This document shows positions 35,244 to 53,753 of a stretch of DNA of 64,000 nt, piece by piece. Numbering within the stretch: the stretch's first letter is position 1; the number at the start of each line of letters is the position of its first letter. The notes under the pieces were generated by a model. That model ran no database searches. It was not told the DNA's origin and saw only the letters and a program-made list of their open reading frames with translations. The DNA comes from Candidatus Eiseniibacteriota bacterium (lineage in GTDB: Bacteria; Eisenbacteria; RBG-16-71-46): assembly GCA_963707915.1 (NCBI GenBank), contig OY970178.1, forward strand, positions 1,984,001-2,048,000. The letters are read 5' to 3'. The position numbers were made by a program, and so were the translations under genes.

Positions 35244-35536
35244 GAGTCACCTCCCATGCAGGGCGACGCGGGCTCGGGGGCATCCAGTCGCGACGTCGTC
35301 CAGCCGGGATTGTTCGCCCCGGTGCAGAACGCTGTCAAGGCCTGACCGTGCGCCGCCAGGAGCGCCGGAGCCCCGACCCCGCTGCCCGGGCGCCGCTTCC
35401 GCACGAGCGGGAGCCAGCAGATGGGCGGGGCGCACCGGTGTCCCCTGCCGACTCGCAGCCCGGCGCTCAAGTCCCCGCCCCGGATACCGGGATCATGGGA
35501 AAGGGCAGCTGTGCCCGACAGGAGGAGAATATCCCC

Positions 35537-36102
35537 ATGGTCAACGGAATCAGTCCTGCGCTCTACGGCCTGGACGCGGCCTCGTGGTCGGCCACCCAGG
35601 CACGTCGTGAATCCACCGTGGCCACGAACCTCCTCGCGGTGCAGGCCTCGAGTGACACCACCGCCGAGATCGACATCGCCACGAAGGACGGCGACATGGT
35701 GACGATCTCGCTCTCCTCCGACGTCGATGCGGGATATGCCTACTACCGCCGCACAGGCCCCGCTGCAGGAAGCGATCTGGAAGCCAGAGCGTTGGTCGCC
35801 TCGGCCAGCAGCGAGCTGCAGATCACGGTGCCGGGGAACCTCGACGAGCAGGAGTTGGCCGACATCACGAAGCTCGTCCGGCAGCTCGGTCAGGCGATCC
35901 GCAGCTTCGTGAAGGGCGACACCACCGCGTCGGCCCGGCAGGCCCTCGCATCTGGCCCGTCTCGCCGTCGAGGATGTGGATGGCCGCCGAACCCGCGGTG
36001 AAGCTGACCTGGCCGGCGCCGAAGTGGTGGGTCTCGCGCCCGAGCGCGTCGTGGAGCCGGAACTCGCGCGGCGTCGAGGCGAGCGCGGCCCCACCGTCCT
36101 AG
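35537..36102 (+). pseudogene. Decayed paralog of the gene at 37658-38464
   Basis: About the first 135 codons closely match the intact copy (e.g. IDIATKDGDMVTISL vs IDIVTKDGDTVTISL); premature TGA at 36001; fragmented nucleotide similarity continues to about 36100. Confidence 0.75.
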
Positions 36103-37389: not shown

Positions 37390-37657
37390 CACGGGCCATC
37401 TCCGGTGCCGGGCGGTGCCGGCTCCATCGGGAGGATCCGGCCGGGGCACCGATTCCCCACGATCATCCGCCCGGCCGTAGCGTCTGGACGGGCCTCGCTT
37501 TGGGCCTGCAAGGGCGTCGTGTCGCCCACCGGGGCCGGGGGACCCCTCCCGGAGCGGCCCCCCACTCCAAGCCTGCCCGCCGCCCCCTCAAGCCCCGGTC
37601 TCTCGGACCGAGATTATGGGTAGGGGCACCCGTGCCCGGAAAGTGAGGCTACCCCCC

Positions 37658-38464
37658 ATGATCAACGGAATCAGTCCCGCGCTCGTCGGGCTCGACCCGA
37701 CCGCGTGGTCGTCCGCCCCGGCGCGCCGGGAGTCCTCCAGTGCCACGAGCGTCCTCGCGGCGCAGGCCTCGAGCGAGACCACGGCCGACATCGACATCGT
37801 CACCAAGGACGGCGACACGGTGACGATCTCCCTGCACTCCGACGTCGACGCGGGGTACGCCTACTATCGCCGCACCGGTGACGGGAGCGAACTGGAAGCC
37901 CGCGCGCTCGTCGCCTCGGTCAGCCAGGAGTTGCAGGTCACGGTGGAGGGGAGCCTCGACGAGCAGGAGCTGGCCGACATCGCGAAGCTTGTCAAGCAGA
38001 TCGGCCAGGCGATCCGCAGCTTCGTCAAGGGCAACACCACGGCGTCGGCCCAGCAGGCCCTCGAGGGGCCCGCGCTGGACTCGCTCTCGGGATTCTCGCT
38101 CGACATGACGCATTCGGACAGCCTCGCGCTGGTCGCGGCGGGCGCCACGACGACGACCGCTCCGGCGGGCGAGGTGACGTTCGAGAAGCCCGTGGCCGAG
38201 CCGCTGCCGACGCTCCCGATCGCGTACGAGGCGGACCCGCCGGACTCCCGGCGCCCTGGCGTCGAGGGCGTGCTCGAGGCGATGCAGAAGAGCGTGAAGG
38301 ACTCCGGCATCGACCTGGCCCGGGCCGGGAAGGTGCTGGTGAGGGCGCTCGAGCGGCTGATGAAGCGCATCGCCGAGGAACCGGCGGGCAGGTCCGCCCG
38401 GCCGGCGCTCGAGGAGATCGCGGCCCGCCTCCCCGAGCACCTGCGGCACGCGCACGACGAGTAG
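37658..38464 (+). CDS. Hypothetical protein (TxDGDxVTISL family, DUF5610-like)
   Basis: ATG 37658; MINGISPA..., IDIVTKDGDTVTISL, VEGSLDEQELADI; high GC3. Family call from memory only. Confidence 0.75.
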   Translation: MINGISPALVGLDPTAWSSAPARRESSSATSVLAAQASSETTADIDIVTKDGDTVTISLHSDVDAGYAYYRRTGDGSELEARALVASVSQELQVTVEGSLDEQELADIAKLVKQIGQAIRSFVKGNTTASAQQALEGPALDSLSGFSLDMTHSDSLALVAAGATTTTAPAGEVTFEKPVAEPLPTLPIAYEADPPDSRRPGVEGVLEAMQKSVKDSGIDLARAGKVLVRALERLMKRIAEEPAGRSARPALEEIAARLPEHLRHAHDE

Positions 38465-39027: not shown

Positions 39028-39375
39028 ATGAGCCCGAACCCGCGAAGCACCGCGCGGAACCCGATGACCGCGCCGAAGCCGGCGTCCCGGGGACGCGTGT
39101 TCATCCGCGTGGAACGATGCAAGGGCTGCGCCTTCTGCGTCGAGTTCTGTCCGCAGAAGGTGCTGAAGCTCTCCGCCGACTTCAATCCCAAGGGCTTCCA
39201 CTACCCCGTCGTGGTCAAGGACGAGTGCATCAACTGCACCCTGTGCCTCTCCCTGTGCCCGGACTATGCGATCTACTCGAAACCCGTCGGCGCACGACCG
39301 GCCGCGCAATCGGCCCCCGGCTCGAACGGCGACGGCGTGAAGCGCGAGACGTCCCGCCAAGGAACCCCGTCATGA
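39028..39375 (+). CDS. korD: 2-oxoacid:ferredoxin oxidoreductase delta subunit (2x[4Fe-4S])
   Basis: CKGCAFCVEFCP, NPKGFHYP, CINCTLCLSLCPDYAI; ATGA overlap with the alpha gene. Confidence 0.88.
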   Translation: MSPNPRSTARNPMTAPKPASRGRVFIRVERCKGCAFCVEFCPQKVLKLSADFNPKGFHYPVVVKDECINCTLCLSLCPDYAIYSKPVGARPAAQSAPGSNGDGVKRETSRQGTPS

Positions 39376-40568
39376 GCGAGAACCCCGCGGTACTGACCGG
39401 CGAGCACTTCCTCCTGGGCGATCACGCCATCACCGAAGGGGCCCTGGCGGCCGGTTGCCGCTTCTTCGCCGGCTACCCGATCACGCCCTCGACCGAGACG
39501 GCGGAGTTGATGTCCCAGCGCATGCCCGAGGTGGGCGGCCTGTACCTGCAGATGGAGGACGAGATCGCCTCGATCGCCGCCATCCTGGGCGCGGCCTGGG
39601 GCGGGGCGAAGACCATGACCGCGACCTCCGGCCCCGGCTTCTCGCTGATGCTCGAGAACCTCGGGCTCGGCGTCATCACCGAGACCCCCACGGTGATCGT
39701 CAACGTCCAGCGCGGCGGGCCCTCCACCGGGCTGCCGACCCTCATGGCGCAGGGCGACATGATGCAGGCGCGCTGGGGCTCGCACGGCCACTACGAGATC
39801 ATCGCGGTCTCGCCCTGGAACGCGCAGGAGTGCTTCGAGCTCACGCTGCGCGCGTTCAACCTCGCCGAGCGCTACCGGACGCCGGTGCTGGTGCTGGCCG
39901 ACGCGGAGATCGGCCACCTGATCGAGAAGGTCGTGATCCCGCCGGCCGAGAGCCTCGAGATCTGGCACCGCAAGCGGCCGACCGCGAAGCCCGGCGAGTT
40001 CAAGACCTTCCAGCCCGACGACGACCTCATCCCGCCCATGGCGCCGATCGGCGAGGGCTACCGCGTCTTCGTGGACAGCCTCACCCACGACGAGCGCGGC
40101 TACCCGGTGATGACCGCCGAGTGCCAGGCGAAGCTGGTCCAGCGGCTGTGCGACAAGATCACCCACAACCGCTTCGCGATCTACGACAACGTCGAGCGGG
40201 ACGTGGAGGACGCCGAGGTCCTGGTGCTGTCCTACGGCATCTCGGCGCGCACCGCGATGCGCTCGATCGCGCTGGCGAAGGCGCGCGGCCTGAAGGTCGG
40301 CATGCTGCGGCTGCGGACCGTCTGGCCGTTCCCCGACGAGCGCGTGCGGGAGTTGTCCCGGAAGGTCAAGGGCATCGTGGTTCCCGAGCTCAACCTGGGC
40401 CAGATGGTGCGCGAAGTGGAGCGCTGCGCGATCGACACCTGCCAGGTCGCGCTGGTGCCGCATGCCGGCGGCAGCCTGCACGACCCCGAGGCGATCCTCG
40501 AGGCGATCGTCCAGGTGTCCGAGGGCCGGGCGCCGTCGCGGGCGGCCCTGGCGGTCCAGGGGAAGTAG
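39372..40568 (+). CDS. korA: 2-oxoacid:ferredoxin oxidoreductase alpha subunit
   Basis: FFAGYPITPSTE, QMEDEIAS, TATSGPGFSLM, QRGGPSTGLPT, VPELNLGQ. Confidence 0.95.
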   Translation: MSENPAVLTGEHFLLGDHAITEGALAAGCRFFAGYPITPSTETAELMSQRMPEVGGLYLQMEDEIASIAAILGAAWGGAKTMTATSGPGFSLMLENLGLGVITETPTVIVNVQRGGPSTGLPTLMAQGDMMQARWGSHGHYEIIAVSPWNAQECFELTLRAFNLAERYRTPVLVLADAEIGHLIEKVVIPPAESLEIWHRKRPTAKPGEFKTFQPDDDLIPPMAPIGEGYRVFVDSLTHDERGYPVMTAECQAKLVQRLCDKITHNRFAIYDNVERDVEDAEVLVLSYGISARTAMRSIALAKARGLKVGMLRLRTVWPFPDERVRELSRKVKGIVVPELNLGQMVREVERCAIDTCQVALVPHAGGSLHDPEAILEAIVQVSEGRAPSRAALAVQGK

Positions 40569-40570
40569 CG

Positions 40571-42577
40571 ATGCCCCGGATCGGCGTCTTCGTCTGTCAC
40601 TGCGGCGAGAACATCGCCCGCACGGTGGACGTCCGCAAGGTGGCCGAGAGCGCCGGGAAGATCCCCGGCGTGGTCTTCTCCACCGACTACACCTACATGT
40701 GCTCCGCGCCCGGCCAGAAACTGGTGATGGACGCCATCCGCGAGCGGGGGCTCACCGGGGTCGTGGTCTCGGCCTGTTCCCCGCAGCTCCACGAGCCCAC
40801 GTTCCGCAACGCCGTGAAGCAGGCGGGCCTCAATCCCTTCATGTGCGAGATGGCGAACATCCGCGAGCAGTGCTCGTGGGTGCACCCGGACCGCGCCGAG
40901 GGCACGGCCAAGGCCTCCCGGATCATGGCCTCGGCGGTGCAGAAGGTGGCGCGCAGCCGCCCGCTGAACGCCTCGGAGGTGCCGGTCACCAAGCGCGCAC
41001 TGGTCATCGGCGGCGGCGTGGCCGGGATCCGCACGGCGCTCGACATCGCCAACGCCGGCCACGAGGTGGTGCTGGTCGAGAAGCAGCCGTCGATCGGCGG
41101 CAACATGGCGCGACTGAGCGAGACGTTCCCGACACTCGACTGCTCCCAGTGCATCCTGACCCCGCTCATGGTCGAGGTCGCGCGCCACCCGCGCATCGAG
41201 CTCATCACCCACGCCGAGGTCGAGGAGGTCTCGGGCTACGTCGGCAACTTCCGCGTCCGCATCCGCCGCCGGCCGTCGTTCGTGCGCGCGGACCAGTGCA
41301 CCGCCTGCGGCGACTGCGCCGCCGCGTGCCCGGTGTCCGTGCCGAACGAGTTCGACCAGGGCCTGGCGTGGCGCAAGGCGATCTACATCCCGTTCCCCCA
41401 GGCCGTGCCCTCGACCTACACGCTCGACGCCGCCAACTGCTCGAACCAGTCGCTGGTCTCGGCCAAGAGCGGCTACCGGGTGCTGGCGTGCGAGCGCTGC
41501 GCCAACGCCTGCAGCCGCAAGGCGATCGACTACGACATGAAGCCCGAGATCCTCGAGCGCGAGGTCGGCGCGATCGTCGCCGCCACCGGCTACAAGATGA
41601 TGGGCGGCGAGGGGCTCGCGGACTACGGCTACGGCCGCTACCCGGACGTGGTGGACAGCCTCGAGTTCGAGCGGTTGCTCTCCGCCTCGGGGCCGACCGG
41701 CGGCGAGGTGCTCCGGCCGTCCGACGGCAGGCCCGCGCGGGACGTGGTGTTCGTGCAGTGCGTGGGCTCGCGCGACCCCGAACACGGCTACCCCTACTGC
41801 TCCCGGGTCTGCTGCATGTACACGGCCAAGCACGCGCTGCTGTTCAAGCACAAGGTGCATGGCGGACGGGCCACGGTCTTCTACATCGACATCCGCGCCG
41901 CGGGCAAGGGCTACGAGGAGTTCGTGCAGCGCGCGATGCAGGAGGAGCGCGTCCTCTACGTGCGCGGGCGCGTCGCCCGGGTGGTCCAGCAGGACGGGCA
42001 GCTCGTGGTCTACGGCGCCGACACGCTCAGCGGCCAGCCGCTGCAGGTGCGCGCCGACCTCGTGGTGCTGGCCAGCGCGATGGTGCCCGCCCAGACCGAC
42101 GTGGCGGCCCGGCTGCGCGTGCCGACCGACGCCTACGGCTTCTTCCAGGAGGCCCACCCCAAGCTGCGCCCGGTCGAGACGCTGACCGCGGGGATCTTCA
42201 TCACCGGCGCGGCGCACGGGCCGAAGGACATCCCGGACACGGTGGCCCAGGCGTCGGCCGCCGCGTCGAAGGCGCTCGACCTGTTGTCCCGGACCCGGCT
42301 GCAGCGCGAACCGACCATCGCCCGCGTCGACGAGGCCGTGTGCATGGCCTGCTTCGAGTGCATCCGGGTGTGCCCCTACCAGGCGGTCGCGAGGCACGAG
42401 ATCCGCGCGCGCGACGGGCGGCTGCTGCGCGTGGTCGCACGCGTGAACCCGGCGATGTGCGAAGGCTGCGGCGCCTGCTCCGGCGCGTGCCGCTCGAGCG
42501 CCATGGACCTGCAGGGCTACACCGACAGCCAGATCTTCGCGCAGCTGACCGCGCTGATGGCGGGGGTGAACTCATGA
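40571..42577 (+). CDS. hdrA: Heterodisulfide reductase subunit A (flavin-based electron-bifurcating subunit)
   Basis: ATG 40571; GVFVCHCG, YMCS, ACSP..HE, NIREQCSWVH, GGGVAG, ETFPTLDCSQC, LEFERLL, QCVGSRD..YCSRVCCMYTAK, GPKDIPDTVAQ, and two ferredoxin domains. Confidence 0.95.
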   Translation: MPRIGVFVCHCGENIARTVDVRKVAESAGKIPGVVFSTDYTYMCSAPGQKLVMDAIRERGLTGVVVSACSPQLHEPTFRNAVKQAGLNPFMCEMANIREQCSWVHPDRAEGTAKASRIMASAVQKVARSRPLNASEVPVTKRALVIGGGVAGIRTALDIANAGHEVVLVEKQPSIGGNMARLSETFPTLDCSQCILTPLMVEVARHPRIELITHAEVEEVSGYVGNFRVRIRRRPSFVRADQCTACGDCAAACPVSVPNEFDQGLAWRKAIYIPFPQAVPSTYTLDAANCSNQSLVSAKSGYRVLACERCANACSRKAIDYDMKPEILEREVGAIVAATGYKMMGGEGLADYGYGRYPDVVDSLEFERLLSASGPTGGEVLRPSDGRPARDVVFVQCVGSRDPEHGYPYCSRVCCMYTAKHALLFKHKVHGGRATVFYIDIRAAGKGYEEFVQRAMQEERVLYVRGRVARVVQQDGQLVVYGADTLSGQPLQVRADLVVLASAMVPAQTDVAARLRVPTDAYGFFQEAHPKLRPVETLTAGIFITGAAHGPKDIPDTVAQASAAASKALDLLSRTRLQREPTIARVDEAVCMACFECIRVCPYQAVARHEIRARDGRLLRVVARVNPAMCEGCGACSGACRSSAMDLQGYTDSQIFAQLTALMAGVNS

Positions 42578-43977
42578 GCGAGCCGACCCTGCAGGCCGTG
42601 ACCGGCACCGCGGCACCGGCCTGGAAGCCGCAGATCACCGCCATCGTCTGCAACTGGTGCACCTACGCCGGCGCCGACATGGCGGGGACCACGCGGCGCG
42701 AGTACCCGGCGAGCGTGCGCCTGCTGCGCGTGCCGTGCAGCGGGCGGGTGAACCCGCTCTTCATCCTCAAGTCGTTCGAGCAGGGCGCCGACGGCGTGCT
42801 GGTCTCGGGCTGCCACCCCGGCGACTGCCACTACGTGCAGGGGAACTTCTTCGCGCGGCGCCGCTTCGCGGCCTTCCGCTCGCTGCTGCACTTCCTCGGC
42901 GTCGACCCGCGGCGGGTGCACTTCTCCTGGATCTCGGCCTCGGAGGGCATCAAGTGGTCGCGGGTGGTCGGCGACGTGACCCGCGCGGTGACCGAGGCCG
43001 GCCCGCTCGCCGACTGGGGCAAGGTCCGCCCGCAGGCGCCGGTGACGCTGCCCGAGCCGGCCGACCCCAGGCCGCGGCCCGCCGACGCCGAACTGGCGGC
43101 GGTCACCGGCCACGCGCGCGAGCTGGCGGCGTCGCTGCTGCGCGAGGGCAAGGTCGCGTTCGTGCTGGGCTGGACGCCCGGCCCGATCCCCGGCCAGACC
43201 GTCCCCGCCTTCATCCAGCGGCCCGAGGATGCGGCGACCCTGGTGTTCGGCACGGACAGCCACGCCGACCTGGCCGCCTACCTGGCCGGCCCGCGCAAGG
43301 TGGCCGGCAAGGTCGCCGTGCTGGTGAAGGCCTGTGACGCGCGGGCCGCGACGACGCTGCTGGCCGAGGGCCAGCTGGTGCGCGAGGACGTGGTCCTGGT
43401 CGGCGTGTCCTGCCCGGGCATGTGGCGTGACGACCGGCTCGCCTACCGCTGCCACTCCTGCGACGGCGAGGTCGGCGCCCTCTGCGACTTCACCGTGAGC
43501 GCCGCGGGCGTGCAGGCCGGGGCGGTCCGGGGCGACGCGCAGCGGGCCACCGGGCCCGATCCGCGCGACGTCCAGAACACGTACCTCGAGTCCCTGCCCC
43601 CGGCCCAGCGCTGGGCCTTCTGGCAGGAACAGTTCGCCGACTGCGTGCGCTGCTACGCCTGCCGCGCGGTCTGCCCGATGTGCTACTGCGGGACGTGCAT
43701 CTCCGAGCAGCACCGCCCCCAGTGGGTGCCCACCTCGATCGACGGACGAGCCAACACGGCCTGGAACCTGATCCGCGCCTACCACCTGAGCGGCCGCTGC
43801 GCGGGCTGCGACGAGTGCGAGCGCGTCTGCCCGGCCAACATCCGCCTCGACCTGATCAACCGGCGACTGGCGCTGGAGCTCGAGCAGCGCTTCGACTATC
43901 GCGCGGGGACCGACCCGGAGGGGGCGCCGCCGCTGGCAACCTTCCGGCCGGACGACCCGCAGGAGTTCATCTACTGA
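42574..43977 (+). CDS. MvhD [2Fe-2S] domain fused to an FrhB/FdhB-like 4Fe-4S domain (FlxCD-like)
   Basis: CNWCTYAGAD, RVPCSGRV, GCHPGDCHY, WISASEG; C-terminal CVRCYACRAVCPMCYC and GRCAGCDECERVCP. Confidence 0.9.
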   Translation: MSEPTLQAVTGTAAPAWKPQITAIVCNWCTYAGADMAGTTRREYPASVRLLRVPCSGRVNPLFILKSFEQGADGVLVSGCHPGDCHYVQGNFFARRRFAAFRSLLHFLGVDPRRVHFSWISASEGIKWSRVVGDVTRAVTEAGPLADWGKVRPQAPVTLPEPADPRPRPADAELAAVTGHARELAASLLREGKVAFVLGWTPGPIPGQTVPAFIQRPEDAATLVFGTDSHADLAAYLAGPRKVAGKVAVLVKACDARAATTLLAEGQLVREDVVLVGVSCPGMWRDDRLAYRCHSCDGEVGALCDFTVSAAGVQAGAVRGDAQRATGPDPRDVQNTYLESLPPAQRWAFWQEQFADCVRCYACRAVCPMCYCGTCISEQHRPQWVPTSIDGRANTAWNLIRAYHLSGRCAGCDECERVCPANIRLDLINRRLALELEQRFDYRAGTDPEGAPPLATFRPDDPQEFIY

Positions 43978-45047
43978 TGAGCACGCCGTCGGAAGGACCG
44001 ACCCATCGCCTCGGGCAGGACCAGCTGGCGTCGTGGCTGGACGCGCTGATCGCCGAGCGCAGGCGCGTCTACGCGCCGGTGCTGCGGCGCGGGCTGCGGG
44101 TGCTGCGCGTGGTGGACCGGGCGCAGGACGCGGACCTCGCGCCCGGCCGGACCCGCTGGTCGCCCAAGGAGGCCCTGTTCCCGCGCACCGAGACGTTGTT
44201 CTCCTACGAGAACGGCAACGGGACGCCGGTGCTCACCGACCCGCCGGCGGACGACGTCGCGCAGGTCCTGTTCGGCGTGCAGCCCTGCGACGCCGCGGGG
44301 CTGGTGCGGCTCGACGCCATCCTGCTCCAGGACCCGTTCTACGCGCGGCGCCGCGAGCTCACCACGGTGGTCGCCATCGCCTGCTCCGAGGCCGCTCCCG
44401 AGTGCTTCTGCACCGCGGTCGGCGGGTCGCCCGCGGGCGAGGAGGGCGTGGACGTCCTGCTGGCGCCGCACGAGGGGGGCTGGCTGGTCCGCGCGCTGAG
44501 CCCGAAGGGCGAGGCCCTGCTCGCCCCGCGGCGGGGCGACTGGCCGTCGGCCGCCGCGGGCGCGTGGGCGTCGGCCCTCCAGCAGGCGGGCCGGGTGGCC
44601 GCGGGCATGGACCGCCGCGAGATCCCGGCGGAGTGGGCCGCGACGCTCGAGCAGAGCTTCGACGACCCGCGCTGGGAGGCGCTCGCCCGCCGCTGCGTCG
44701 GCTGCAGCATCTGCGCCTACGTCTGCCCGTCGTGCTCCTGCTTCGACGTGGCCGACGAGGGCAGCGACGCCTGCGGCACGCGCTGCCGGACCTGGGACAG
44801 CTGCTCGTTCCGAATGTTCACGCTGCACGGCTCGGGGCACAACCCCCGGCCCGCCCAGGCCGAGCGGTCGCGCCAGCGCGTGCTGCACAAGTTCGCGTTC
44901 TACCCGCTGCAGCACGGCGGCCGGGCGATGTGCGTCGGCTGCGGCCGCTGCATCCGGTCCTGTCCCGTGGGGATGGACATCCACGCGGAGGTCGTCGAGG
45001 TGATGTCCGGGAGACCGGAGAAGGAGTCGAAGGATGTCGAACGCTGA
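43977..45047 (+). CDS. AsrA/HydB-like 4Fe-4S protein (FlxB-like)
   Basis: TGATG coupling; SPKEALFP, FGVQPCD, CFCTAVG, CVGCSICAYVCPSCSCFD, R.WDSC, CVGCGRCIRSCP. Confidence 0.9.
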   Translation: MSTPSEGPTHRLGQDQLASWLDALIAERRRVYAPVLRRGLRVLRVVDRAQDADLAPGRTRWSPKEALFPRTETLFSYENGNGTPVLTDPPADDVAQVLFGVQPCDAAGLVRLDAILLQDPFYARRRELTTVVAIACSEAAPECFCTAVGGSPAGEEGVDVLLAPHEGGWLVRALSPKGEALLAPRRGDWPSAAAGAWASALQQAGRVAAGMDRREIPAEWAATLEQSFDDPRWEALARRCVGCSICAYVCPSCSCFDVADEGSDACGTRCRTWDSCSFRMFTLHGSGHNPRPAQAERSRQRVLHKFAFYPLQHGGRAMCVGCGRCIRSCPVGMDIHAEVVEVMSGRPEKESKDVER

Positions 45048-45921
45048 GACCGTGGCCGGACCGGCGCGCGCCGCCGGCGCACAGGCCGGGCCGCTCGAGA
45101 GCCCGCTCAAGCCGCGCCTGATGCGCATCGTCGAAGCCTGGGACGAGACGCCGGACGTGCGCAGCCTGCGGCTCCAGCCGGTCGACGACGGCCCGCCGGT
45201 GCGCTGGCTGCCCGGGCAGTTCGGCGAGTTCTCGGTGTTCGGAGCGGGCGAGGCGGTCTTCACCATGGCGAACTCACCGTCGCGCGGGGACTTCGTCGAA
45301 TGCGGCTTCCGCGCGCTGGGCAAGGTGACCTGGGCGCTGCGCGACCTGGCGGTGGGCCAGGTGATCGGCTATCGCGGCCCCTACGGGAACTCCTTCCCCG
45401 TCGACTCGTGGCGCGGCAAGGACCTGGTCTTCGTCGGCGGCGGCATCGGCACGGTCGCGCTGCGCGCGCCGCTGCAGTGGGTGCTCGACCACCGCGACGA
45501 CTTCGGCGAGGTCGTGGTGCTGAACGGCGCCCGCAGCGTCGCCGACCTCTGCTACCAGCAGGAGATGCCGGCCTGGGCGGAGGTGCCGGGGGTCCGCGTG
45601 GTACGGACGGTCGACCCGGGCGGCGAGACCCCGGAGTGGGACGGCGAGGTCGGCCTGCTGCCGACGGTGTTCGAGCGGCTGGGCCTGGCGCCGGGCCGCC
45701 GCGTCGTCGTCACCTGCGGCCCGCCCATCATGCTGCACTACCTGTTCCAGTCGCTCGAGAAGCTGCAATTCCCGCCGGACGACGTGGTGACCACGCTCGA
45801 GAACAAGATGAAGTGCGGTCTCGGGCTGTGCGGCCGCTGCAACGTCGGGCGCCTGTTCGTGTGCGTGGACGGTCCCGTGTTCACCTGGGCCCGCCTCAAG
45901 ACCCTGCCCAGGGACTACTAG
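45034..45921 (+). CDS. FAD/NAD(P)-binding FNR-family subunit with [2Fe-2S] (FlxA/AsrB/HydG-like)
   Basis: PGQF, GKVT, GYRGPYGNSF, GGGIG, CGPPIM, MKCGLGLCGRC...CVDGPVF. Confidence 0.92.
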   Translation: MSNAETVAGPARAAGAQAGPLESPLKPRLMRIVEAWDETPDVRSLRLQPVDDGPPVRWLPGQFGEFSVFGAGEAVFTMANSPSRGDFVECGFRALGKVTWALRDLAVGQVIGYRGPYGNSFPVDSWRGKDLVFVGGGIGTVALRAPLQWVLDHRDDFGEVVVLNGARSVADLCYQQEMPAWAEVPGVRVVRTVDPGGETPEWDGEVGLLPTVFERLGLAPGRRVVVTCGPPIMLHYLFQSLEKLQFPPDDVVTTLENKMKCGLGLCGRCNVGRLFVCVDGPVFTWARLKTLPRDY

Positions 45922-45933
45922 GAGAGGAGAGTC

Positions 45934-46833
45934 ATGCGCTTGGCCCGCGAGTTGGAGGAGGAGCTCGGCTCGGAGCACTGGACCGAGGAGGTGCTCGAGG
46001 AGGCGCTCTCGCACCCCACCGAGGAGTTCCTGCGGAAGGACCGGCTCCCCCACATCTGGTGCCCGGGGTGCGGCATCGGGGTGACGACCAACGCGTTCGT
46101 GCAGGCGCTGACCGAGGCCGGCGTGGACCGCGACAAGCTGGTCGTGGTCTCGGGCATCGGCTGCACCGGCCGCGTGTCGGGCTACATGGACTGCGACACC
46201 TTCCACACCACGCACGGCCGCGCCATCCCCTACGCGCTCGGCCTGCACATGACCAACCCGGACCTCAAGATCGTGGTGGTGAGCGGGGACGGCGACCTCC
46301 TGTCGATCGGCGGCAACCACCTGATCCACGCCGCGCGCCGCAACCCCAACATCACCGTCATCTGCGTGAACAACTTCAACTACGGCATGACCGGCGGCCA
46401 GTGCGGGCCCACCAGCCAGCACGACGCCCGCACCGTCACCACGCCGTTCGGCAACATGGAGTACCCGTTCAACGTGCCCCTGCTGATCGGCTCGGCCGGC
46501 GCGACCTACCTGGCCCGCTGGACGGTGCTCGACCTGGGCCGGGTGCGCCGCTCGATGGTGGAGGCGCTCCAGCACAAGGGGTTCGCCTTCGTCGAGGTCG
46601 TCTCCCCGTGCCCGATCTACTACGTCCGCTTCAACAAGCGCGGCGAGGCCGTGGACGAGCTGCGCTACTACCGGGACCACTCCGAGGTGAAGGACTTCGC
46701 TCCGCTCGAGGAGTGCGACCTGACCCTCGGCGGGAAGATCGTGGTCGGCAAGTTCATCGACAAGCAGCGGCCCACCCTGTACGACCTGCTGATGCGTGAC
46801 CAGATCCAGAAGGCCCAGGCCCGGAAGAAATAG
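45934..46833 (+). CDS. korB: 2-oxoacid:ferredoxin oxidoreductase beta subunit (TPP-binding)
   Basis: WCPGCG, SGIGC, HTTHGRA, GDGD..SIGGNH, NNFNYGMTGGQ, SPCP. Confidence 0.95.
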   Translation: MRLARELEEELGSEHWTEEVLEEALSHPTEEFLRKDRLPHIWCPGCGIGVTTNAFVQALTEAGVDRDKLVVVSGIGCTGRVSGYMDCDTFHTTHGRAIPYALGLHMTNPDLKIVVVSGDGDLLSIGGNHLIHAARRNPNITVICVNNFNYGMTGGQCGPTSQHDARTVTTPFGNMEYPFNVPLLIGSAGATYLARWTVLDLGRVRRSMVEALQHKGFAFVEVVSPCPIYYVRFNKRGEAVDELRYYRDHSEVKDFAPLEECDLTLGGKIVVGKFIDKQRPTLYDLLMRDQIQKAQARKK

Positions 46834-46842
46834 GAGTCGGCG

Positions 46843-47412
46843 ATGAGCGCGAAGAAGAACCACATCGAGGTGCGGCTGAGCGGCTTCGGCGGCCAGGGCC
46901 TGGTGCTCGCGGGGATCGTGCTCGGGCGCGCGGCGGCCGTCCACGAGCGCCGCAACGCGGTCATGGCCCAGAGCTACGGGCCCGAGTCGCGGGGCGGCGC
47001 GTCCTGCGCCGAGGTCATCATCGACGACGGGGACATCGACTACCCGCACGTCATCGCTCCCGACGTCGTGCTGGTGCTCTCGCAGGAGGCCTACGCCAGG
47101 TACGGGAAGACCCGCGCGCCCGGCGTGCTGATGATCGCCGAGAAGGACATCGTCCAGCTCGACCCCGCCGCCGAGGCGGGTCGCCGGTCGATGCGCGTGC
47201 CGTTCACCGCGCTCGCCGAGAAAGTCGGGCGCCGCATCGTGCTGAACATGGTCGCGCTCGGCTTCCTGTGCCGCGCGACCGGCGTGGTCAGCCGCGAGGC
47301 CCTGCGGGAGGCGATCAAGGCGTCGGTGCCGCGCGGCACGGACGAGTTGAACCTGCGCGCCTTCGACGCCGGGCACGAGTACACCGAAGGCCTGGTGGAG
47401 GCCGCGCGATGA
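46843..47412 (+). CDS. korC: 2-oxoacid:ferredoxin oxidoreductase gamma subunit
   Basis: SGFGGQG, QSYGPESRGG, NMVALG, NLRAFDAG. Confidence 0.93.
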   Translation: MSAKKNHIEVRLSGFGGQGLVLAGIVLGRAAAVHERRNAVMAQSYGPESRGGASCAEVIIDDGDIDYPHVIAPDVVLVLSQEAYARYGKTRAPGVLMIAEKDIVQLDPAAEAGRRSMRVPFTALAEKVGRRIVLNMVALGFLCRATGVVSREALREAIKASVPRGTDELNLRAFDAGHEYTEGLVEAAR

Positions 47413-48785
47413 CGCAGCCGGCCCTCGCGCCCGGCCACGAGGCCACCGACCACGAGGCGGTGGACCGGCCGATCCGCGAGATCGAGCGCAAGAGCGAGCA
47501 GAACCTCTGGGCCTGCTACCAGTGCGGCCGCTGCACCGCGGACTGCCCGTTCTCGCTGACGCCGAGCCTGGCGGTGCGGCTCCTGCAACTCGGGCAGCTG
47601 GAGGCCGCGCGCAGCCTGGCCACGACCTGGGACTGCGCGAGCTGCTACTCCTGCCAGACCGGGTGCCCGAAGGGCGTCAGCCCGGCGCGGGTGATGAAGG
47701 CACTGCGCGCGCTCGACGGCGGGCAGATGCCCGCGGTCTTCACGCAGCCTGCCGAGCTGCTGGGCCGCAACGGCGACCCGCTCCCGCTCTCCGCGCGCCG
47801 GCCCCGCTGGACGCCGCGCGCCGGCCTCGCCGCGTGGACCCGGCGGATGCGCGCCCGCGCGCTGGCCTCGATGCCCCTGGCGTTCCCGCTGATGAGCGCG
47901 GTCGCGCCGCTCAGCAACCGGATGATGAAGCTGCCCGGCGCGCGGCAACTCGCCCACCTGGTCCTGGGCGTGCACCGCGACCGCAAGCTCCCCACCTTCG
48001 CCGCCCGCTCGTTCCCGGCCTGGTTCGCGACCCACCCGCCGCTCGGCGACGGCCGTCGCGGCGCCGTGATCCTGTTCCACGACGAGTTCATGGACTACAA
48101 CTACCCCCAGACCGGCATCGCGGTGACCGAGATCCTCGAGCGCGCCGGCTACCGGGTCGAGCTGTTCCGCGGCGCCTGCTGCGGCCGGCCGATGATCTCG
48201 AAGGGACTCGAGGAGGGCGCCTCCGCCTGCGCCGTGAAGAACGTCCCCATCCTGCACGAGGCGGCCAGCCGCGGCGCGTACATCGTGGGCTGCGAGCCGT
48301 CCTGCCTGCTCACACTCCGCGACGAGTACCTGCACCTCGTGCCGCAGGGCCTCGAGGCGCAGGCCCGGGCGGTCGCCCGCCAGGCGTTCCTGATCGACGA
48401 GTTCCTGGTCATGCTCCACGCGAAGGGCGAGCTCGAGCTCACCTTCCGCGCACCCGACACGCTGCGGCCCGTGCTGTTCCACGGGCACTGCCACCAGAAG
48501 GCCTTCGCGGACGCGTCGAAGAGCGTCGCACTGCTGGAGCTCGCCGGCTACGACGTGGAGTTCGTCAACGCGGCGTGCTGCGGCATGGCGGGCCTGCACG
48601 GCTTCGAGAAGCGGCATTTCGAGGCCTCGCGCGCTGCCTGCGAGCGCTCGGTGCTCCCGGCGGTACGTTCGCGGCCCGACGCCGACCTCGTCATCATGGG
48701 TGTGTCCTGCCGCCAGCAGATGGAGCAGTTCACCGAGCGCCCGGTCCGCCACCTCGTCGAGGCCGTGCGCGACGCCCTCGCCTGA
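47409..48785 (+). CDS. HdrC-like ferredoxin fused to two CCG domains (HdrD/GlpC-like Fe-S oxidoreductase)
   Basis: ATG 47409; CYQCGRCTADCP, CASCYSCQTGCP; ACCGRP, GCEPSC, HGHCHQK, ACCGMAG, GVSCRQQ. Confidence 0.88.
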   Translation: MTQPALAPGHEATDHEAVDRPIREIERKSEQNLWACYQCGRCTADCPFSLTPSLAVRLLQLGQLEAARSLATTWDCASCYSCQTGCPKGVSPARVMKALRALDGGQMPAVFTQPAELLGRNGDPLPLSARRPRWTPRAGLAAWTRRMRARALASMPLAFPLMSAVAPLSNRMMKLPGARQLAHLVLGVHRDRKLPTFAARSFPAWFATHPPLGDGRRGAVILFHDEFMDYNYPQTGIAVTEILERAGYRVELFRGACCGRPMISKGLEEGASACAVKNVPILHEAASRGAYIVGCEPSCLLTLRDEYLHLVPQGLEAQARAVARQAFLIDEFLVMLHAKGELELTFRAPDTLRPVLFHGHCHQKAFADASKSVALLELAGYDVEFVNAACCGMAGLHGFEKRHFEASRAACERSVLPAVRSRPDADLVIMGVSCRQQMEQFTERPVRHLVEAVRDALA

Positions 48786-48801: not shown

Positions 48802-49254
48802 TCAGCCGGACGGGCGCCGCGGCGCGTGGATCGCGCGGTCGAGGGCCTGCAGGAAGCGCGAACGGTCCCGCGGGTCGAACGGCGGCGGACCGCCCGCCTC
48901 GATCCCGGCGCCGCGCATCTCGGCGAGCAGGTTCCGCGTCGCCAGCGCATCGCCGATGTTCGCCTCGGTGAAGGGCCGGCCGGTCGTGCCCAGCACGCCG
49001 GCGCCGGCGGCGAGGCAGCGGGCGGCGAGCGGGATGTCCGCCGTGACCACCAGGTCGCCGGGCGCGACCCGCGCCGCGATCCAGTCGTCCGCCGCGTCGA
49101 ACCCCCTGTCCACGACCTCGAGCACGACGTCCGGACCGCCCGGGACCCGCATCCAGGAGCCCGCCACGAAGGTCACCCCGAGGCCGTAGCGCTGCGCGAC
49201 CCGGACGACCTCCGGCTTCACCGGGCAGGCGTCGGCGTCAACGTAGATGCGCAC
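48802..49254 (-). CDS. YaiI/YqxD (DUF188) family protein
   Basis: IYVDADACPVK, DAADDWI, VVTADIPLA, GGPPPF..RDRSRF. Confidence 0.92.
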   Translation of the reverse strand: MRIYVDADACPVKPEVVRVAQRYGLGVTFVAGSWMRVPGGPDVVLEVVDRGFDAADDWIAARVAPGDLVVTADIPLAARCLAAGAGVLGTTGRPFTEANIGDALATRNLLAEMRGAGIEAGGPPPFDPRDRSRFLQALDRAIHAPRRPSG

Positions 49255-49318
49255 CGCCCTGCCCTCCCGGGTCCGGGATCCGGCCGCCGCCCGGCCCCGC
49301 GACGCTCCCCCGCATCCC

Positions 49319-50242
49319 TCAGGCCGGCGCGTCGAGCGACCGAGCCGCCTCGCGCAGCACCTCGGCCGAGCGCAGCAGGTCCGCCCGCTCCGCGTCCGTC
49401 ATCCCGGGCTCGAGCACGTGCTCGGCCCCGGTGGGGCTCACCACCGTCGGCAGCGACAGCGCCACGTCGCTGAGCCCCAGCGCGCCCTCCTGGACCCGCG
49501 CCACCGTCAGCACGCGCCGGGCACCCCGCAGCATCCACTTGATCAGCGTCGCGGTGACCAGCCCGATGGCGTGGGTGGTCGCCCCCTTGCGCCGGATGAC
49601 CTCGAGGCCGGCGCCGCGGACCTCCTCGGTCACCCGCGCCTCGCGCGCGGCGTCCCAGCCGGGCCAATCGCGCAGCGGCAGGCCGCCCACCCGCACGCCC
49701 GACCACAGCACCACCTCGGTCGCGCCGTGCTCGCCGATGACCTGGCCGTGGATCGAGCGCGGGTCGAGGTCGAGCTCGCGCCCCAGCACCTGCCGCAGCC
49801 GCGCGGAGTCGAGCATCGTGCCGGTGCCGATCACGCGCGCGGGCGGGAAGCCGGTGGCCCGCGTCATCACCAGCGTCATGACGTCCACCGGGTTCGTCAC
49901 CACGACCACGATGCCGCGCCCGCCGCGCAACTGCCGGCCGATGTCGGTCACGATGCCCGCGTTGGTCGCCAGCAACTGGAGCCGCGACTGCCCCGGGGCG
50001 CGGCCGACGCCCGCCGTGACCACCACCGCGTCGCAATCGAGCATGTCCGCGATGGTGCCCGCGCGCACCCGCGCCGTGGGATAGAACGCCGAGCCCTGGA
50101 GGAGGTCCATGGCCTCGCCCTCGGCGACGTCCGGTCGCGCGTCGTGCAGGACCAGCTCGCCCGCCGCGCCGAAGTGGAGCAGCGACAGGGCGACGCTCAC
50201 GCCGACGCCGCCGGTACCGATGATGCCGACCTTCACGCGCAT
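49319..50242 (-). CDS. ldh: L-lactate dehydrogenase
   Basis: ATG 50242; GTGGVG, GQSRLQL (Gln at the specificity position), TNPVD, GTMLDSAR, GEHG, RKGAT. Confidence 0.85.
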   Translation of the reverse strand: MRVKVGIIGTGGVGVSVALSLLHFGAAGELVLHDARPDVAEGEAMDLLQGSAFYPTARVRAGTIADMLDCDAVVVTAGVGRAPGQSRLQLLATNAGIVTDIGRQLRGGRGIVVVVTNPVDVMTLVMTRATGFPPARVIGTGTMLDSARLRQVLGRELDLDPRSIHGQVIGEHGATEVVLWSGVRVGGLPLRDWPGWDAAREARVTEEVRGAGLEVIRRKGATTHAIGLVTATLIKWMLRGARRVLTVARVQEGALGLSDVALSLPTVVSPTGAEHVLEPGMTDAERADLLRSAEVLREAARSLDAPA

Positions 50243-50372
50243 GGCTGGCTCCCCATCCGGTCGAGGTGTGCGGGCACGTCCGGCCGGGAACATAGCCCAG
50301 AACCCCGGTCGCCGCCGATCCGCCGCTCCCGGGCCCGCCCGCCGGCGGCCGGCGCGCCGCGCGGCCCCAAGC

Positions 50373-50402
50373 CCGACGGCCACCCGGGTGGGTGGCCGTC
50401 GG
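50373..50402 (-). terminator. 13-bp hairpin downstream of the PLD-domain gene
   Basis: ccgacggccaccc-gggt-gggtggccgtcgg. Confidence 0.55.
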
Positions 50403-50441
50403 CAGGTCGGGACCGGTGCCCCGGCTCGGGGGCGGTCCGCG

Positions 50442-53400
50442 TCACCGGAGCAGCAGCATCTTCCGCTGCTGGACGACGCTCCCGACCTGCAGCCGGCAGA
50501 AGTAGACGCCGCTGGCGATCCCCTTCACGTCGAGGTCGACGCGGTAGCGCCCCGCGGCCTGCGGCTGGTCGACGAGCTTGCGCACCTCGCGGCCCTGCAG
50601 GTCGTACATCCGTAGCGAGACGTGCTGCGCCACCGGGATCGCGTAGGCGATGCTGGTGGAGTTGCGGAACGGGTTCGGCGCGTTCTGCGCGAGCATCACG
50701 GCGCGCGGGACGCCCAGGGTGACGTCGGTCACCCGCACGGAGTCGCTGCCGCCGAACTGGTAGTAGCGGGCGGTGAACTCCTGCAGGTACTGGTTGGCGA
50801 TGTCGGGGTCGTGGAGGATGAAGGTGTTCTCGTTGTTCGAGTTCTCCGCCGAGGCCGACCAGTTGTGCGAGCCGGTCAGGGTCACGCCGTCCCAGGTCGG
50901 GTTGTCCGCGTCCATCAGGGCGTACTTGTGGTGGAGCAGGCCCCCGCCGGTGTTCAGGCGCACGTCCACGCCCGACGCGACCAGGCCGGCGTATTCCGAG
51001 CCGGAGTCGGTGCCGTTGTCCAGGTCCCCGCGGACCTTGAGCCCGGCCGTCTTCCGCGCGATCAGGGCGGCGGCGATGTCCGACCGGGTCAGCGTGAGCA
51101 CCTCGAAGCCGACCGAGTGCTGGGCCGCGTTGATCGCCGAGATGATCTGCCAGTTCGCACCGTCGGAGGGGCTGAAGTAGCAGGACGCCGCGTGACCTCC
51201 GATGACGAACTTGTGCGGCGTGTCGTCCAGCTTGCGCGCCCCGAAGCGCGAGTTCGCGGCGTTCGGCACGTCGGTGTCGCTCCCCCACATCTCGTCGAAC
51301 TCGAGCGTGTAGACGACGGCCAGGGCCTGGTCCTGCACTTCGATCGCGTTCTGGTAGTCGCTGTTCGTGCCGGGGTCGGTGAGGTTCCACGACCCGGTCC
51401 ACACCCAGGTGCTCTCGGGCGCGCCGCCGCGCGAGTCGACCACGAAGAACTTGTCGTGCATGAGCCCGGCGCCGTAGTTGATCGGGTCGAACTTGTCGTC
51501 GATCAGCGGGATCCCGCTGCCGGCGACCGTGTTGAACGCGAGCGTGTTGCGGTTGTCGGCCTCGCAGATGACCCGCACCTTCACGCCCCGGTTCCTGGCG
51601 CTGACCAGCGCATCGGCGATGGTGCCGCCCACCGTGCCGCTCATGCTGTAGACCGCGCAGTCGATCGAGCGCCGGGCGTTGTCGATGCGCGTCTTGAGCC
51701 GCGCGACCAGGTCCTGGTTGCCGTTGGCCGGGTGCAGCCAGGCCACGGCCGTGTCCACGCTCTTGTTGAAGTAGGCATTGATCTCGCCCGTGGTCTGCGC
51801 GGGCGAGGCGGTGCAGAAGACGCGGGTGGTCGAGAAGTTGGCGCCGTTCACGTCGGCCGATCCGACGCTGTAGTGGTAGACGGTCGCCGGCGCAAGCCCG
51901 GGAAGCTCCACGTCGTGCGCGGTCACCGGGTCCGCGACGACCACGCTGTCGCCGAGCGCCGCGGTGAGCCCGTAGCGGACGATGCTGCTCGCGGCCACGT
52001 CCGTGGTCCAGTGCAGCTGCACCGACGAGGGCAGGATGTGGTCCTCGTAGGGGGTGGTGAGGATGATCGGGCCCGGGTGCCCGATGATGTCGTCGGGCGA
52101 GCGCGGCGAGATCTCGTAGTCGGCGGTGAAGGGCGGCGGAACCGGGTTGGTGCCGGCCTTGTACTGCTTGAGGATGCCGATCACGTCGAACACGCTCGGC
52201 GTCGGCGGATAGCTGAGCGGGATGTAGATCATCGTCGTGCCGGAGGCGTCGGTGATCATCGAGGTCGTCGAGTTGTAGCTCGCGCCGTTGATGCGGATCA
52301 GGCGGCCCTCGTTCGGCTCGGTGCCGTCCGGGTGGAACGTGGCGTTGACGTCGGCGCAGGTGACGACCAGCGGCTCCGGCGCCGGCCGGCCGGTGGCGAT
52401 CACCTGGAGCGAGGAGAAGTCCACCGTGATCTCCGTGAGGCCGCGGAACTGCGCGATCGACCCGCTGACGAGGACGCTGTCGCCGGGCGCGAGCGTGACC
52501 GGGGGCGCGCCGTAGGCGAAGCAGTCGATGCCACCCGTGCCGTCCTGCACGTAGAAGTCGGTGTTGGTGCCGCTCCAGTTCACGGTGACGGTGCCCGAGA
52601 CGGTCACCGAGGAGCCGGCCGCGTACGGCGCCGCCGCCACACCCGTCGTGGGGTCGTTGACGTGGACGCTCACGATCGGGACCAGCGTCACCACGCGGAC
52701 CTTCGGCTGCTTGACGACCTGGGTCAGCGTCCCGGACGCGACGGCGCTCCGCAGCGTGAAGGTCGTCGTACCGGTGGCGACCGGTGCGGTGAGGTTCGAG
52801 AGGGTCACCAGGCCGCTGTCCGCGGGGGTGACCGCGGCGCCGGCGATGAACAGCGTGTCGGCGACGAGCGAGGGCGTGGCGGAGGTGAAGGCCGTCCCCG
52901 TCAGGGCGACGTCCGTCAGCGAGCGCGACCAGGTCCAGTCCGACGGGATCAGGATCGCCAGGTCCGTCAGCGTGTAGGCCGAGTCCTGGGCGACGGAGAA
53001 CGCCAGCGAGGGCACGGCGTGCTCGGTGAGGACCGTGGCGGGCGCGGCGCTGCCGCGGCCGGTCCCGTTGCCTCCGGAGGCGAAGGCAGGCTCCGGCGGG
53101 TTGCCGCTGTTCTGCGGGTTGCGGCCGTTGGTCTGCGTGACGAAGTCGTTGCCGTTGACGTTGGTGTCCTGCCCGTTCCCGGCGAACTCCTCGGAGCCGC
53201 CCGCCGCGAGCGTCGCCGCGGTGGAGGTCACGGACGCCTTGCGCTCGACGCTGTTGCCATTCGCGCTCGTGCCGTGATTCGGCGCGGCCGCGCCGCCCTC
53301 GGGATTGACCGCGCTGCCCCAGCCGACCTTGTCCACCTCGACGGCCGAGGCGTCGATGATGCGCTCGTGGCCGTTGTCCGCCATGCCCGTGCCGGAGGTC

Positions 53401-53753
53401 CAGAGCCCCGAGGAGTAGTCCGCCGTGACCGAGCCCACGTACGACGTGTTGACGATCAGGTAGAACCCGTGCGGCTGGATGAGCGTGCCCGCGGGCAGGA
53501 TGGCGCGGTCGCTCCACGTGCTGCCGTTGGTCGCGGAGGAGTACTGGAGCTTCCAGCCGCCGATGTCGATCGCGGTGGCGGTCGGGTTGTAGAGCTCGAC
53601 GAACTCGTCGGTGGCGACCGCGGGCCCGCGCGTGGCGAACTCGCTGATGACGACGTGCGTGGCGGCCGCCTTGGCCGGGGGCACCGCGAGCAGGAGGAGC
53701 GCCAGGATCGCGAGCAGGACGGGAGCGCTGGAACGGCGTGGCAGGAGACGCAT
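50442..53753 (-). CDS. Large secreted protein: lamin-tail domain + OB-like + FN3-like + two PLD (HKD) domains + T9SS-type C-terminal domain
   Basis: Signal peptide; VVISEF...DEFVELYNPT; HDKFFVVD..WTGSWN and HHKYALMD..TGSHNWS; LAQNAPNPF...YDLQGREV...ASGVYFCRL...KMLLLR. Confidence 0.88.
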   Translation of the reverse strand: MRLLPRRSSAPVLLAILALLLLAVPPAKAAATHVVISEFATRGPAVATDEFVELYNPTATAIDIGGWKLQYSSATNGSTWSDRAILPAGTLIQPHGFYLIVNTSYVGSVTADYSSGLWTSGTGMADNGHERIIDASAVEVDKVGWGSAVNPEGGAAAPNHGTSANGNSVERKASVTSTAATLAAGGSEEFAGNGQDTNVNGNDFVTQTNGRNPQNSGNPPEPAFASGGNGTGRGSAAPATVLTEHAVPSLAFSVAQDSAYTLTDLAILIPSDWTWSRSLTDVALTGTAFTSATPSLVADTLFIAGAAVTPADSGLVTLSNLTAPVATGTTTFTLRSAVASGTLTQVVKQPKVRVVTLVPIVSVHVNDPTTGVAAAPYAAGSSVTVSGTVTVNWSGTNTDFYVQDGTGGIDCFAYGAPPVTLAPGDSVLVSGSIAQFRGLTEITVDFSSLQVIATGRPAPEPLVVTCADVNATFHPDGTEPNEGRLIRINGASYNSTTSMITDASGTTMIYIPLSYPPTPSVFDVIGILKQYKAGTNPVPPPFTADYEISPRSPDDIIGHPGPIILTTPYEDHILPSSVQLHWTTDVAASSIVRYGLTAALGDSVVVADPVTAHDVELPGLAPATVYHYSVGSADVNGANFSTTRVFCTASPAQTTGEINAYFNKSVDTAVAWLHPANGNQDLVARLKTRIDNARRSIDCAVYSMSGTVGGTIADALVSARNRGVKVRVICEADNRNTLAFNTVAGSGIPLIDDKFDPINYGAGLMHDKFFVVDSRGGAPESTWVWTGSWNLTDPGTNSDYQNAIEVQDQALAVVYTLEFDEMWGSDTDVPNAANSRFGARKLDDTPHKFVIGGHAASCYFSPSDGANWQIISAINAAQHSVGFEVLTLTRSDIAAALIARKTAGLKVRGDLDNGTDSGSEYAGLVASGVDVRLNTGGGLLHHKYALMDADNPTWDGVTLTGSHNWSASAENSNNENTFILHDPDIANQYLQEFTARYYQFGGSDSVRVTDVTLGVPRAVMLAQNAPNPFRNSTSIAYAIPVAQHVSLRMYDLQGREVRKLVDQPQAAGRYRVDLDVKGIASGVYFCRLQVGSVVQQRKMLLLR

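Follow-up and report, generated by a model that had tools for sequence, protein, structure and literature searches.

A Kor-Hdr-Flx-Tfr complex, in which the Flx-Hdr part would bifurcate electrons directly to a four-subunit 2-oxoglutarate:ferredoxin oxidoreductase (OGOR), was proposed for tubeworm symbionts by Rubin-Blum et al. 2019 (PMC6315080). The available text of this and a later report places the cluster, tfrBA-hdrCB-korDABC-hdrA-flxDCBA-aclBA, in Ca. Endoriftia, the Escarpia symbiont and Thioflavicoccus mobilis (PMC6315080; PMC11636981), and operon-like co-expression of a cluster of this type is described in the accessible part of Mitchell et al. 2024 (PMC11636981). A 2026 survey, as far as its available text goes, still cites the Kor-Hdr-Flx complex as a suggestion (PMC13147460), and the accessible sections of PMC7382037 and PMC13768988 hold nothing further on the link. 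The broader question is how cells supply reductive carboxylation with electrons of very low potential when neither light nor H2-driven bifurcation nor ion gradients provide them. Here, I show that a stretch of 64,000 nucleotides (nt) from a Candidatus Eiseniibacteriota genome (contig OY970178.1, positions 1,984,001 to 2,048,000; hereafter the window) encodes, at window positions 39028-48785, the smallest version seen of the proposed Kor-Hdr-Flx module: nine intact genes in the order korD-korA-hdrA-mvhD::flxC-flxB-flxA-korB-korC-hdrC::CCG, the kor genes being split around the Hdr/Flx genes.

The nine-gene unit resembles the tubeworm-type cluster in that the genes of a four-subunit OGOR are mixed with hdrA and flxDCBA, all in one direction, in the direct bifurcation from NADH to OGOR that is proposed, and in a rubrerythrin pair found in some copies. 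It differs in that kor, intact between hdrCB and hdrA according to Table S1 of PMC6315080 and the legend of Extended Data Fig. 3 of PMC11636981, is split here; that hdrB, tfrAB and aclAB are absent; that flxD and flxC are fused and an HdrC::YdiJ-type CCG protein comes last; and that its hosts are not gammaproteobacterial sulfur oxidisers. With the FlxABCD-HdrABC system of Desulfovibrio (Ramos et al. 2015, as cited in Text S1 of PMC6315080) it shares FlxA, FlxB, FlxC and FlxD and the HdrA and HdrC domains, in the usual order, but HdrB and alcohol dehydrogenase are missing from the unit, DsrC is absent from five of the six carriers, and a 2-oxoacid:ferredoxin oxidoreductase (OFOR) is built in. 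Because HdrB, Tfr and DsrC are missing, the unit lies outside both types; by analogy, it would work like the proposed tubeworm Kor-Hdr-Flx module without belonging to that cluster type. What is new is the kor split, the disappearance of hdrB, tfrAB and aclAB from the cluster and HdrC::CCG as last gene, the core idea being already in print. The initial annotation knew of no characterised complex with this layout; a literature search whose coverage left out most subscription journals found neither the split order nor this HdrC::CCG protein described, but Kor-Hdr-Flx bifurcation as such had been proposed in print in 2019, with another gene order.

Gene identities were assigned by Pfam and NCBIfam profile searches, and the window lies inside a single 3.62-Mb contig of a genome that is 94.8% complete. 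All nine open reading frames (ORFs) are on the + strand, intact and, as initially annotated, tightly coupled. The OFOR delta subunit, a 2x[4Fe-4S] ferredoxin of 115 amino acids (aa), or 103 if translation starts at the ATG at 39064, is encoded by korD (39028..39375); it matches Pfam Fer4_7, its top NCBIfam model (OGOR_delta, E 4e-18) stays under the cut-off, and its eight cysteines are invariant in an alignment of 17 KorD. The alpha subunit, korA (39372..40568, 398 aa, YPITP motif), matches POR_N and PFOR_II, and NF006412 at 548 bits, exceeding the cut-off of 411. A full-length hdrA (40571..42577, 668 aa) is followed by the mvhD::flxC (FlxD-FlxC) fusion (42574..43977, 467 aa; FlpD at residues 20-141, plus Fer4), which is one frame of 454-467 aa in all four complete split loci checked. 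Next come flxB (43977..45047, 356 aa), an AsrA/HydB-like Fe-S protein matching Fer4_22 and the sulfhydrogenase beta and AsrA models, and flxA (45034..45921, 295 aa), an NAD(P)-binding flavoprotein with a [2Fe-2S] motif, matching NAD_binding_1, DHODB_Fe-S_bind and the HydG/AsrB/PyrK models. The beta subunit, korB (45934..46833, 299 aa; WCPGCG, GDGD, Arg81), matches TPP_enzyme_C; the gamma subunit, korC (46843..47412, 189 aa), matches POR, with NF006323 at 214 bits slightly below the cut-off of 235. All four subunits and the OFOR motifs YPITP, WCPGCG and GDGD are therefore present in the split unit. The last gene, hdrC::CCG (47409..48785, 458 aa), combines an HdrC-like 2x[4Fe-4S] domain, a linker (residues 136-195) and two CCG domains. 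From 5' to 3' the gaps between genes are -4, +2, -4, -1, -14, +12, +9 and -4 nt, the -14 between flxB and flxA becoming +4 if flxA starts at GTG 45052. Between the end of korA (40568) and the start of korB (45934) lie 5365 nt, in agreement with the separation of about 5.4 kb noted at the outset. A promoter and terminator scan gave 0 and 0 sites, a result that carries no weight at 72% GC. No transmembrane segment is predicted in any of the nine proteins, and the unit contains no stand-alone ferredoxin gene.

The full order recurs in the host genome (G000), its congener (G135, intact, 78-95% identity), a Ca. Krumholzibacteriia metagenome-assembled genome (MAG; G206), a Streptosporangiaceae genome (G964, locus L187), an Acidobacteriota genome (G1364) and a metagenome contig (L152) that carries all nine genes; a further genome, G894, has the same order for the portion its contig spans. 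A synteny search thus found the order not unique to the assembly, and recurrent in four distant lineages. Outside the genus the proteins of the unit are 48-75% identical, and the gap between korA and hdrA is 2-5 nt in 6/6 split loci. In G206, korD-korA-hdrA lie on one contig and the remainder on another, the contig ends overlapping exactly by 141 nt. MAG binning may misassign short contigs; those bearing the cluster in G964 and G1364 measure 163 and 186 kb. In G964, korB and korC are fused in one frame of 507 aa (L187, 11972-13495).

The unit is also rare. HdrA is matched in 53 of the 206 genomes of the host's phylum; among the 20 regions inspected, the HdrAs next in identity (57-59%) belong to ordinary hdrC-hdrB-hdrA-mvhD-flx clusters, which lack kor. 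In three of those 206 genomes hdrC::CCG occurs, and G206 is the only one of 208 genomes of its own phylum to have it. KorB searches returned 2/251 genomes in the family of the Streptosporangiaceae record, 3/351 in the phylum of the Acidobacteriota record and 5/351 in the class of the Dehalococcoidia record. No split cluster was found among the 351 genomes of the latter class, all five matches being intact korDABC; in these five (L190-L194) the gene directly after korDABC encodes a GltD-like/HdrA protein of ~1165 aa, and mvhD, hdrC-CCG and another hdrA come next. Equal-sized contigs hint at a split cluster elsewhere in this class.

A metagenome scan yielded 22 loci, 17 in the hdrC::CCG clade and five with an ordinary HdrC. 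In 15 of the 17, korC stands immediately upstream of hdrC::CCG, with the flxA-korB junction visible in eight; the other two are uninformative, since L156 begins within hdrC::CCG and the junction in L151 is interrupted by a scaffold gap (NN), which is why L151 was rejected as a flxA::hdrC fusion without korBC. The 15 loci are not 15 independent cases, because L152 and L153 resemble one strain and several are close kin of the host. Four sediment DNA runs yielded short pieces, of which none spans the unit. In an indirect comparison, 19 of the 120 best KorB matches share an identical-sized contig with the 120 best matches of the last gene, as against 1.3 expected and a maximum of seven in 20000 shifts. 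The distribution, rare and patchy over lineages, is as would be expected under horizontal transfer.

The phylogenies point to a common origin. The six split loci are monophyletic (100/100) in a KorA+KorB tree of 17 rows, as are the split-locus HdrAs in an HdrA tree of 22 rows (100/100). The host has a second, intact korD-korA-korB-korC at window positions 60520-63491 (-), 42-55% identical to the split copy; it was rejected as the source, for the split KorAB stand apart and this copy falls among the intact ones from relatives. The kor split appears, from these trees, to have arisen once. With order and tight coupling kept in four lineages and KorAB and HdrA each monophyletic, the proposal of an OFOR dedicated to an Hdr-Flx module is borne out, yet a single split event means that the retained order cannot alone prove structural need. 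The sister of the split-clade HdrA (89/84) is encoded in an Acidobacteriota genome of 34% GC, downstream of intact korDABC in a tubeworm-type cluster (L195, 490-16283) with the order nuoF-like, HdrL-like, mvhD, flxC-like, hdrC, hdrB, korDABC, hdrA, mvhD, a 231-aa ORF and a TfrA-like gene. Among sister loci with intact korDABC an hdrA-type gene directly follows korC in 7/8, and the Kor-HdrA link is therefore old and wide.

The last gene sets the unit apart. In a sequence search of the structure database its N-terminus matches solved HdrC only, whereas residues 147-457 match the C-termini of FAD oxidoreductases of ~970-1000 aa; it starts with the HdrC-like domain and has no N-terminal FAD-binding oxidase domain. 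The CCG half has seven invariant cysteines against 10 in HdrB: at site 1 the first Cys is Asp in 38/38 sequences, and the first Cys of both CxxC motifs is lost or variable. In a CCG tree of 30 rows, in which YdiJ and GlcF are long branches, the seven clade members (100/100) are nested within a group (100/97) of these FAD oxidoreductases and E. coli YdiJ; GlpC is adjacent, and HdrB lies apart. HdrCB/HdrD and TfrB were rejected as identities of the gene by NCBIfam models, Cys motifs and tree position. Of the initial annotation, then, the HdrC half stands, while the CCG half is not HdrB-like by profiles, motifs or tree; the high-potential arm evidently lost HdrB and carries a CCG module that, judging by descent, came from YdiJ-type FAD oxidoreductases. 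A genome scan with the whole protein matched at least 601 stretches, mostly long FAD oxidoreductases, and full-length hdrC::CCG relatives were two of 80 loci among them. The predicted model (pLDDT 85.7) has EtfD as its top whole-chain fold match (Z 22.0, rmsd 3.7, 339 aligned); the YdiJ/GlpC branch was not represented by any solved structure among the sequence- and fold-search matches. With the C-terminal module of YdiJ/D-iLDH-type FAD oxidoreductases, GlpC and the cytoplasmic portion of EtfD/EMO (9OJN) it shares CCG motifs, tree position and the Fe-S plus CCG fold; unlike them, it has neither an FAD domain nor a heme-b membrane domain, its Fe-S domain is HdrC-like and its partner is HdrA. The linker is basic and helical (median net charge +8.5 over 38 sequences), without a transmembrane segment.

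Over its whole length HdrA aligns with its methanogen counterpart (5ODC_A, E 1e-205); it comprises an N-terminal and an FAD part as well as an inserted and a C-terminal ferredoxin part. Glu367, Lys420 and the cluster cysteines are invariant in alignments of 16 and 19 HdrA, the former two being E356 and K409 of 5ODC, the Glu/Lys at the flavin. The inserted ferredoxin domain holds a 14-residue insert common to 4/4 split copies aligned, with a shorter form in two ordinary HdrAs. For KorB the closest solved chain is the H. pylori Oor beta subunit (8YS5, E 1e-63). Arg81 aligns with Arg63 of the M. marinus OGOR beta subunit, which presumably binds 2-oxoglutarate; an Arg occupies this position in 120/120 KorB matches, and Sulfolobus OFORs have Lys there. 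For the split-unit OFOR, 2-oxoglutarate is thus the most likely substrate, an assignment that follows from this one residue and from the family. The unit has the same four subunits as OorDABC/KorDABC of H. pylori, in contrast to which its alpha and beta genes are far apart, beta and gamma are fused in G964, and beta bears an N-terminal extension. This clade-specific extension of ~28 residues is found in 8/8 split-clade KorB, and a His-Trp/Phe in it recurs in 111/120 matches. KorB extension and HdrA insert are possible docking features. A physical complex of the Kor and Hdr/Flx proteins is put at slightly less than an even chance, and the direct wiring of HdrA through the delta subunit suggested in the initial annotation is likewise a candidate.

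My preferred reading, a tentative one held with somewhat more doubt than confidence, is that the unit is an NADH-fed electron-bifurcating module for an OGOR running in the direction of CO2 fixation, and that menaquinone probably accepts the high-potential electrons. By homology to Flx-Hdr, NADH would be oxidised at FlxA and its electrons relayed over FlxB, FlxC and MvhD to the flavin of HdrA. From there the low-potential electron would pass through the KorD ferredoxin to KorB/KorA, where succinyl-CoA would be carboxylated to 2-oxoglutarate; the high-potential electron would reach menaquinone by way of the HdrC domain and then the CCG clusters, and could be handed on to fumarate via the host's separate Sdh/Frd, or to oxygen. 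With nine intact genes, no in-frame TGA in hdrA and neither Tfr nor ATP citrate lyase (ACL) genes, the unit should be expressible whole. The OGOR couple has a potential of -500 mV. Calculated at standard state, the four-electron reaction yields ~0 kJ if a disulfide is the acceptor, -9 to -13 kJ if it is menaquinone and -30 to -33 kJ if it is fumarate, a difference that gives an energetic reason for dropping HdrB; the further potentials used were -140, -70, +33 and -320 mV, taken from the available text of PMC5861303. The same text describes an analogous bifurcation by FixABCX, from NADH to ferredoxin/flavodoxin and quinone, at an Etf flavin there and, as predicted, at HdrA here (PMC5861303). 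EtfD, the closest fold, is an electron-transfer protein to menaquinone and was counted for the quinone arm.

Of the genes that this route would draw on, the host has futalosine menaquinone genes (MqnA/D), Sdh/Frd and SucCD; it also has an isocitrate-dehydrogenase-family gene, Rnf and a heme-copper oxidase, SdhA/FrdA lying 900 kb from the unit with small membrane-type genes of its own. Among the six carriers, 2-oxoglutarate dehydrogenase E1 and citrate synthase are found in 6/6, SdhB/FrdB and MenG above cut-off each in 5/6, and DsrC in one. The initial annotation had remarked on the lack of hydrogenase and dsr genes in the window: matches to the NiFe large subunit, five in number, all fall at three loci elsewhere in the host genome, and DsrC has no match anywhere in it at its stated completeness. 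If the high-potential arm does end on a quinone, the unit would represent a bifurcase based on HdrA that has no disulfide arm, and would point to reductive tricarboxylic acid (TCA) flux hidden in lineages regarded as heterotrophs.

Several points weigh against the preferred reading. Menaquinone provides little driving force, which makes the direction dependent on cell state, and Arg81 does not mark direction because the host's ordinary korB has the same Arg. The quinone role of the CCG module would rest on family descent: HdrB matches the model nearly as well as EtfD does (Z 20.0, rmsd 3.0, 232 aligned), and EtfD reaches quinone via a heme-b membrane domain that hdrC::CCG lacks. The linker helices have low hydrophobic moments (0.04-0.28), and membrane binding of hdrC::CCG is therefore no more than a suggestion. 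In the available text of a 2026 EMO preprint, the function of these domains is called 'less defined' in GlcF, D-iLDH and GlpC, clusters of this kind are shown to be able to act purely as carriers of electrons, and a tree of CCG domains is given that may bear on the last gene (10.64898/2026.08.18.745454). G206, an incomplete MAG, has no SdhB/FrdB match, and in another genome (G207; L052, 9983-12352) an orphan copy of hdrC::CCG occurs, with two rubrerythrin-like genes after it, and HdrA has no match there. ACL (PF16114) matched in 0/1 and 0/5 genomes, in a search where no positive control gave a match either; there is therefore no sign of canonical reductive TCA autotrophy.

The same wiring might carry the opposite flux, that is, anoxic 2-oxoglutarate oxidation, HdrA confurcating its electrons with those of menaquinol from succinate oxidation to reduce NAD+. 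This is unlikely, albeit compatible with a menaquinone reaction so near equilibrium, with citrate synthase in all carriers next to an undetected ACL, and with a group 3b-type NAD(P)-linked hydrogenase through which the host could dispose of NADH. The reductive direction assumed in the preferred reading is favoured because the oxidative step is already covered by 2-oxoglutarate dehydrogenase in 6/6 carriers and, in the host, by a second korDABC plus Rnf; moreover, the nearest related clusters have TfrA-like or ACL genes and are tied to reductive flux (L195; PMC6315080).

The high-potential arm might instead end on a soluble acceptor, either a rubrerythrin-like di-iron protein that removes peroxide or oxygen, or a small molecule or thiol. 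Two rubrerythrin/ferritin-like genes do follow hdrC::CCG in L152, L153, L154 and the orphan L052, with 73-77% identity when L152 is compared with L052; the tubeworm cluster ends with two rubrerythrins (Table S1, PMC6315080), and none of the nine proteins has a transmembrane segment. Yet the pair has no tblastn match in the host genome and is not beside the clusters in L187, L188 and L189, a patchiness that marks it as accessory, and the lack of three of HdrB's 10 ligands in CCG argues against HdrB-type disulfide chemistry; an acceptor of this sort is accordingly judged improbable, and menaquinone is kept as the probable one.

Rather unlikely, too, is that the unit encodes an OGOR and an NADH oxidoreductase resembling Flx-Hdr as independent enzymes, co-regulated and coupled by free ferredoxin only, the split order being a rearrangement frozen in one transcript and spread horizontally without structural meaning. 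All split loci derive from one event, so that the conserved order counts once, and related clusters keep kor intact (7/8 sister loci; PMC6315080), from which it follows that splitting is not needed for a Kor-Hdr link. On the other hand, no stand-alone ferredoxin is encoded in the unit, and the KorB extension and HdrA insert could serve for docking. A solved precedent, by its title, is the Fdh-Hdr-Fmd supercomplex (7BKB), in which, as I take it, HdrA feeds a CO2-reducing enzyme directly, albeit with HdrB and a heterodisulfide. An assembly artefact or one-off insertion in the host genome has a virtually negligible probability, and chance or misassembly is excluded, because the identical order is found in five other assemblies and all nine frames are intact, despite frameshifts elsewhere in this long-contig assembly (second hdrA, COX1).

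The preferred reading can be extended to a bolder, distinctly doubtful one, in which the unit is a horizontally moving 9.8-kb cassette, an HdrA complex with a quinone arm in place of the disulfide arm and hard-wired to a carboxylase, by which menaquinone-bearing heterotrophs could reverse a TCA step on NADH alone, without ACL, Rnf or free ferredoxin. A reversed cycle without ACL is conceivable under this extension because citrate synthase is present in 6/6 carriers, and soil Actinomycetota would be included among the hosts running succinyl-CoA to 2-oxoglutarate. Near two copies of the unit, on the opposite strand, lie genes for an NADP isocitrate dehydrogenase and a succinic-semialdehyde-dehydrogenase-like protein (L188, 1800-2813; L189, 18334-19530), weak hints of C4/C5 metabolism.

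Other features of the host genome may be mentioned. Its OFOR gene sets number five, among them a three-gene Por-type OFOR with an Rnf operon just past the window (contig positions ~2055000-2065000, L172). A second Hdr locus (2138000-2152000, L050) holds Etf, two Fe-S/CCG proteins, hdrA, mvhD, NiFe small and large subunits, hdrC and hdrB, with a two-component system inserted; its hdrA has a frameshift and an in-frame TGA, and one TGA occurs in many HdrAs of the host's phylum, perhaps encoding selenocysteine. Heme-copper oxidase subunit I (1399300-1400573) is in five pieces that change frames, probably through sequencing indels. Downstream of the unit, converging genes (window 48802-53753, -) for a YaiI/YqxD protein, a lactate/malate dehydrogenase and a secreted-type PLD/lamin-tail protein are retained in close relatives only. 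Just upstream, an ORF without Pfam family is duplicated (window 35348-36001 and 37616-38464, +), the two copies having 70% aa identity over 163 residues and 81% DNA identity over 464 nt.

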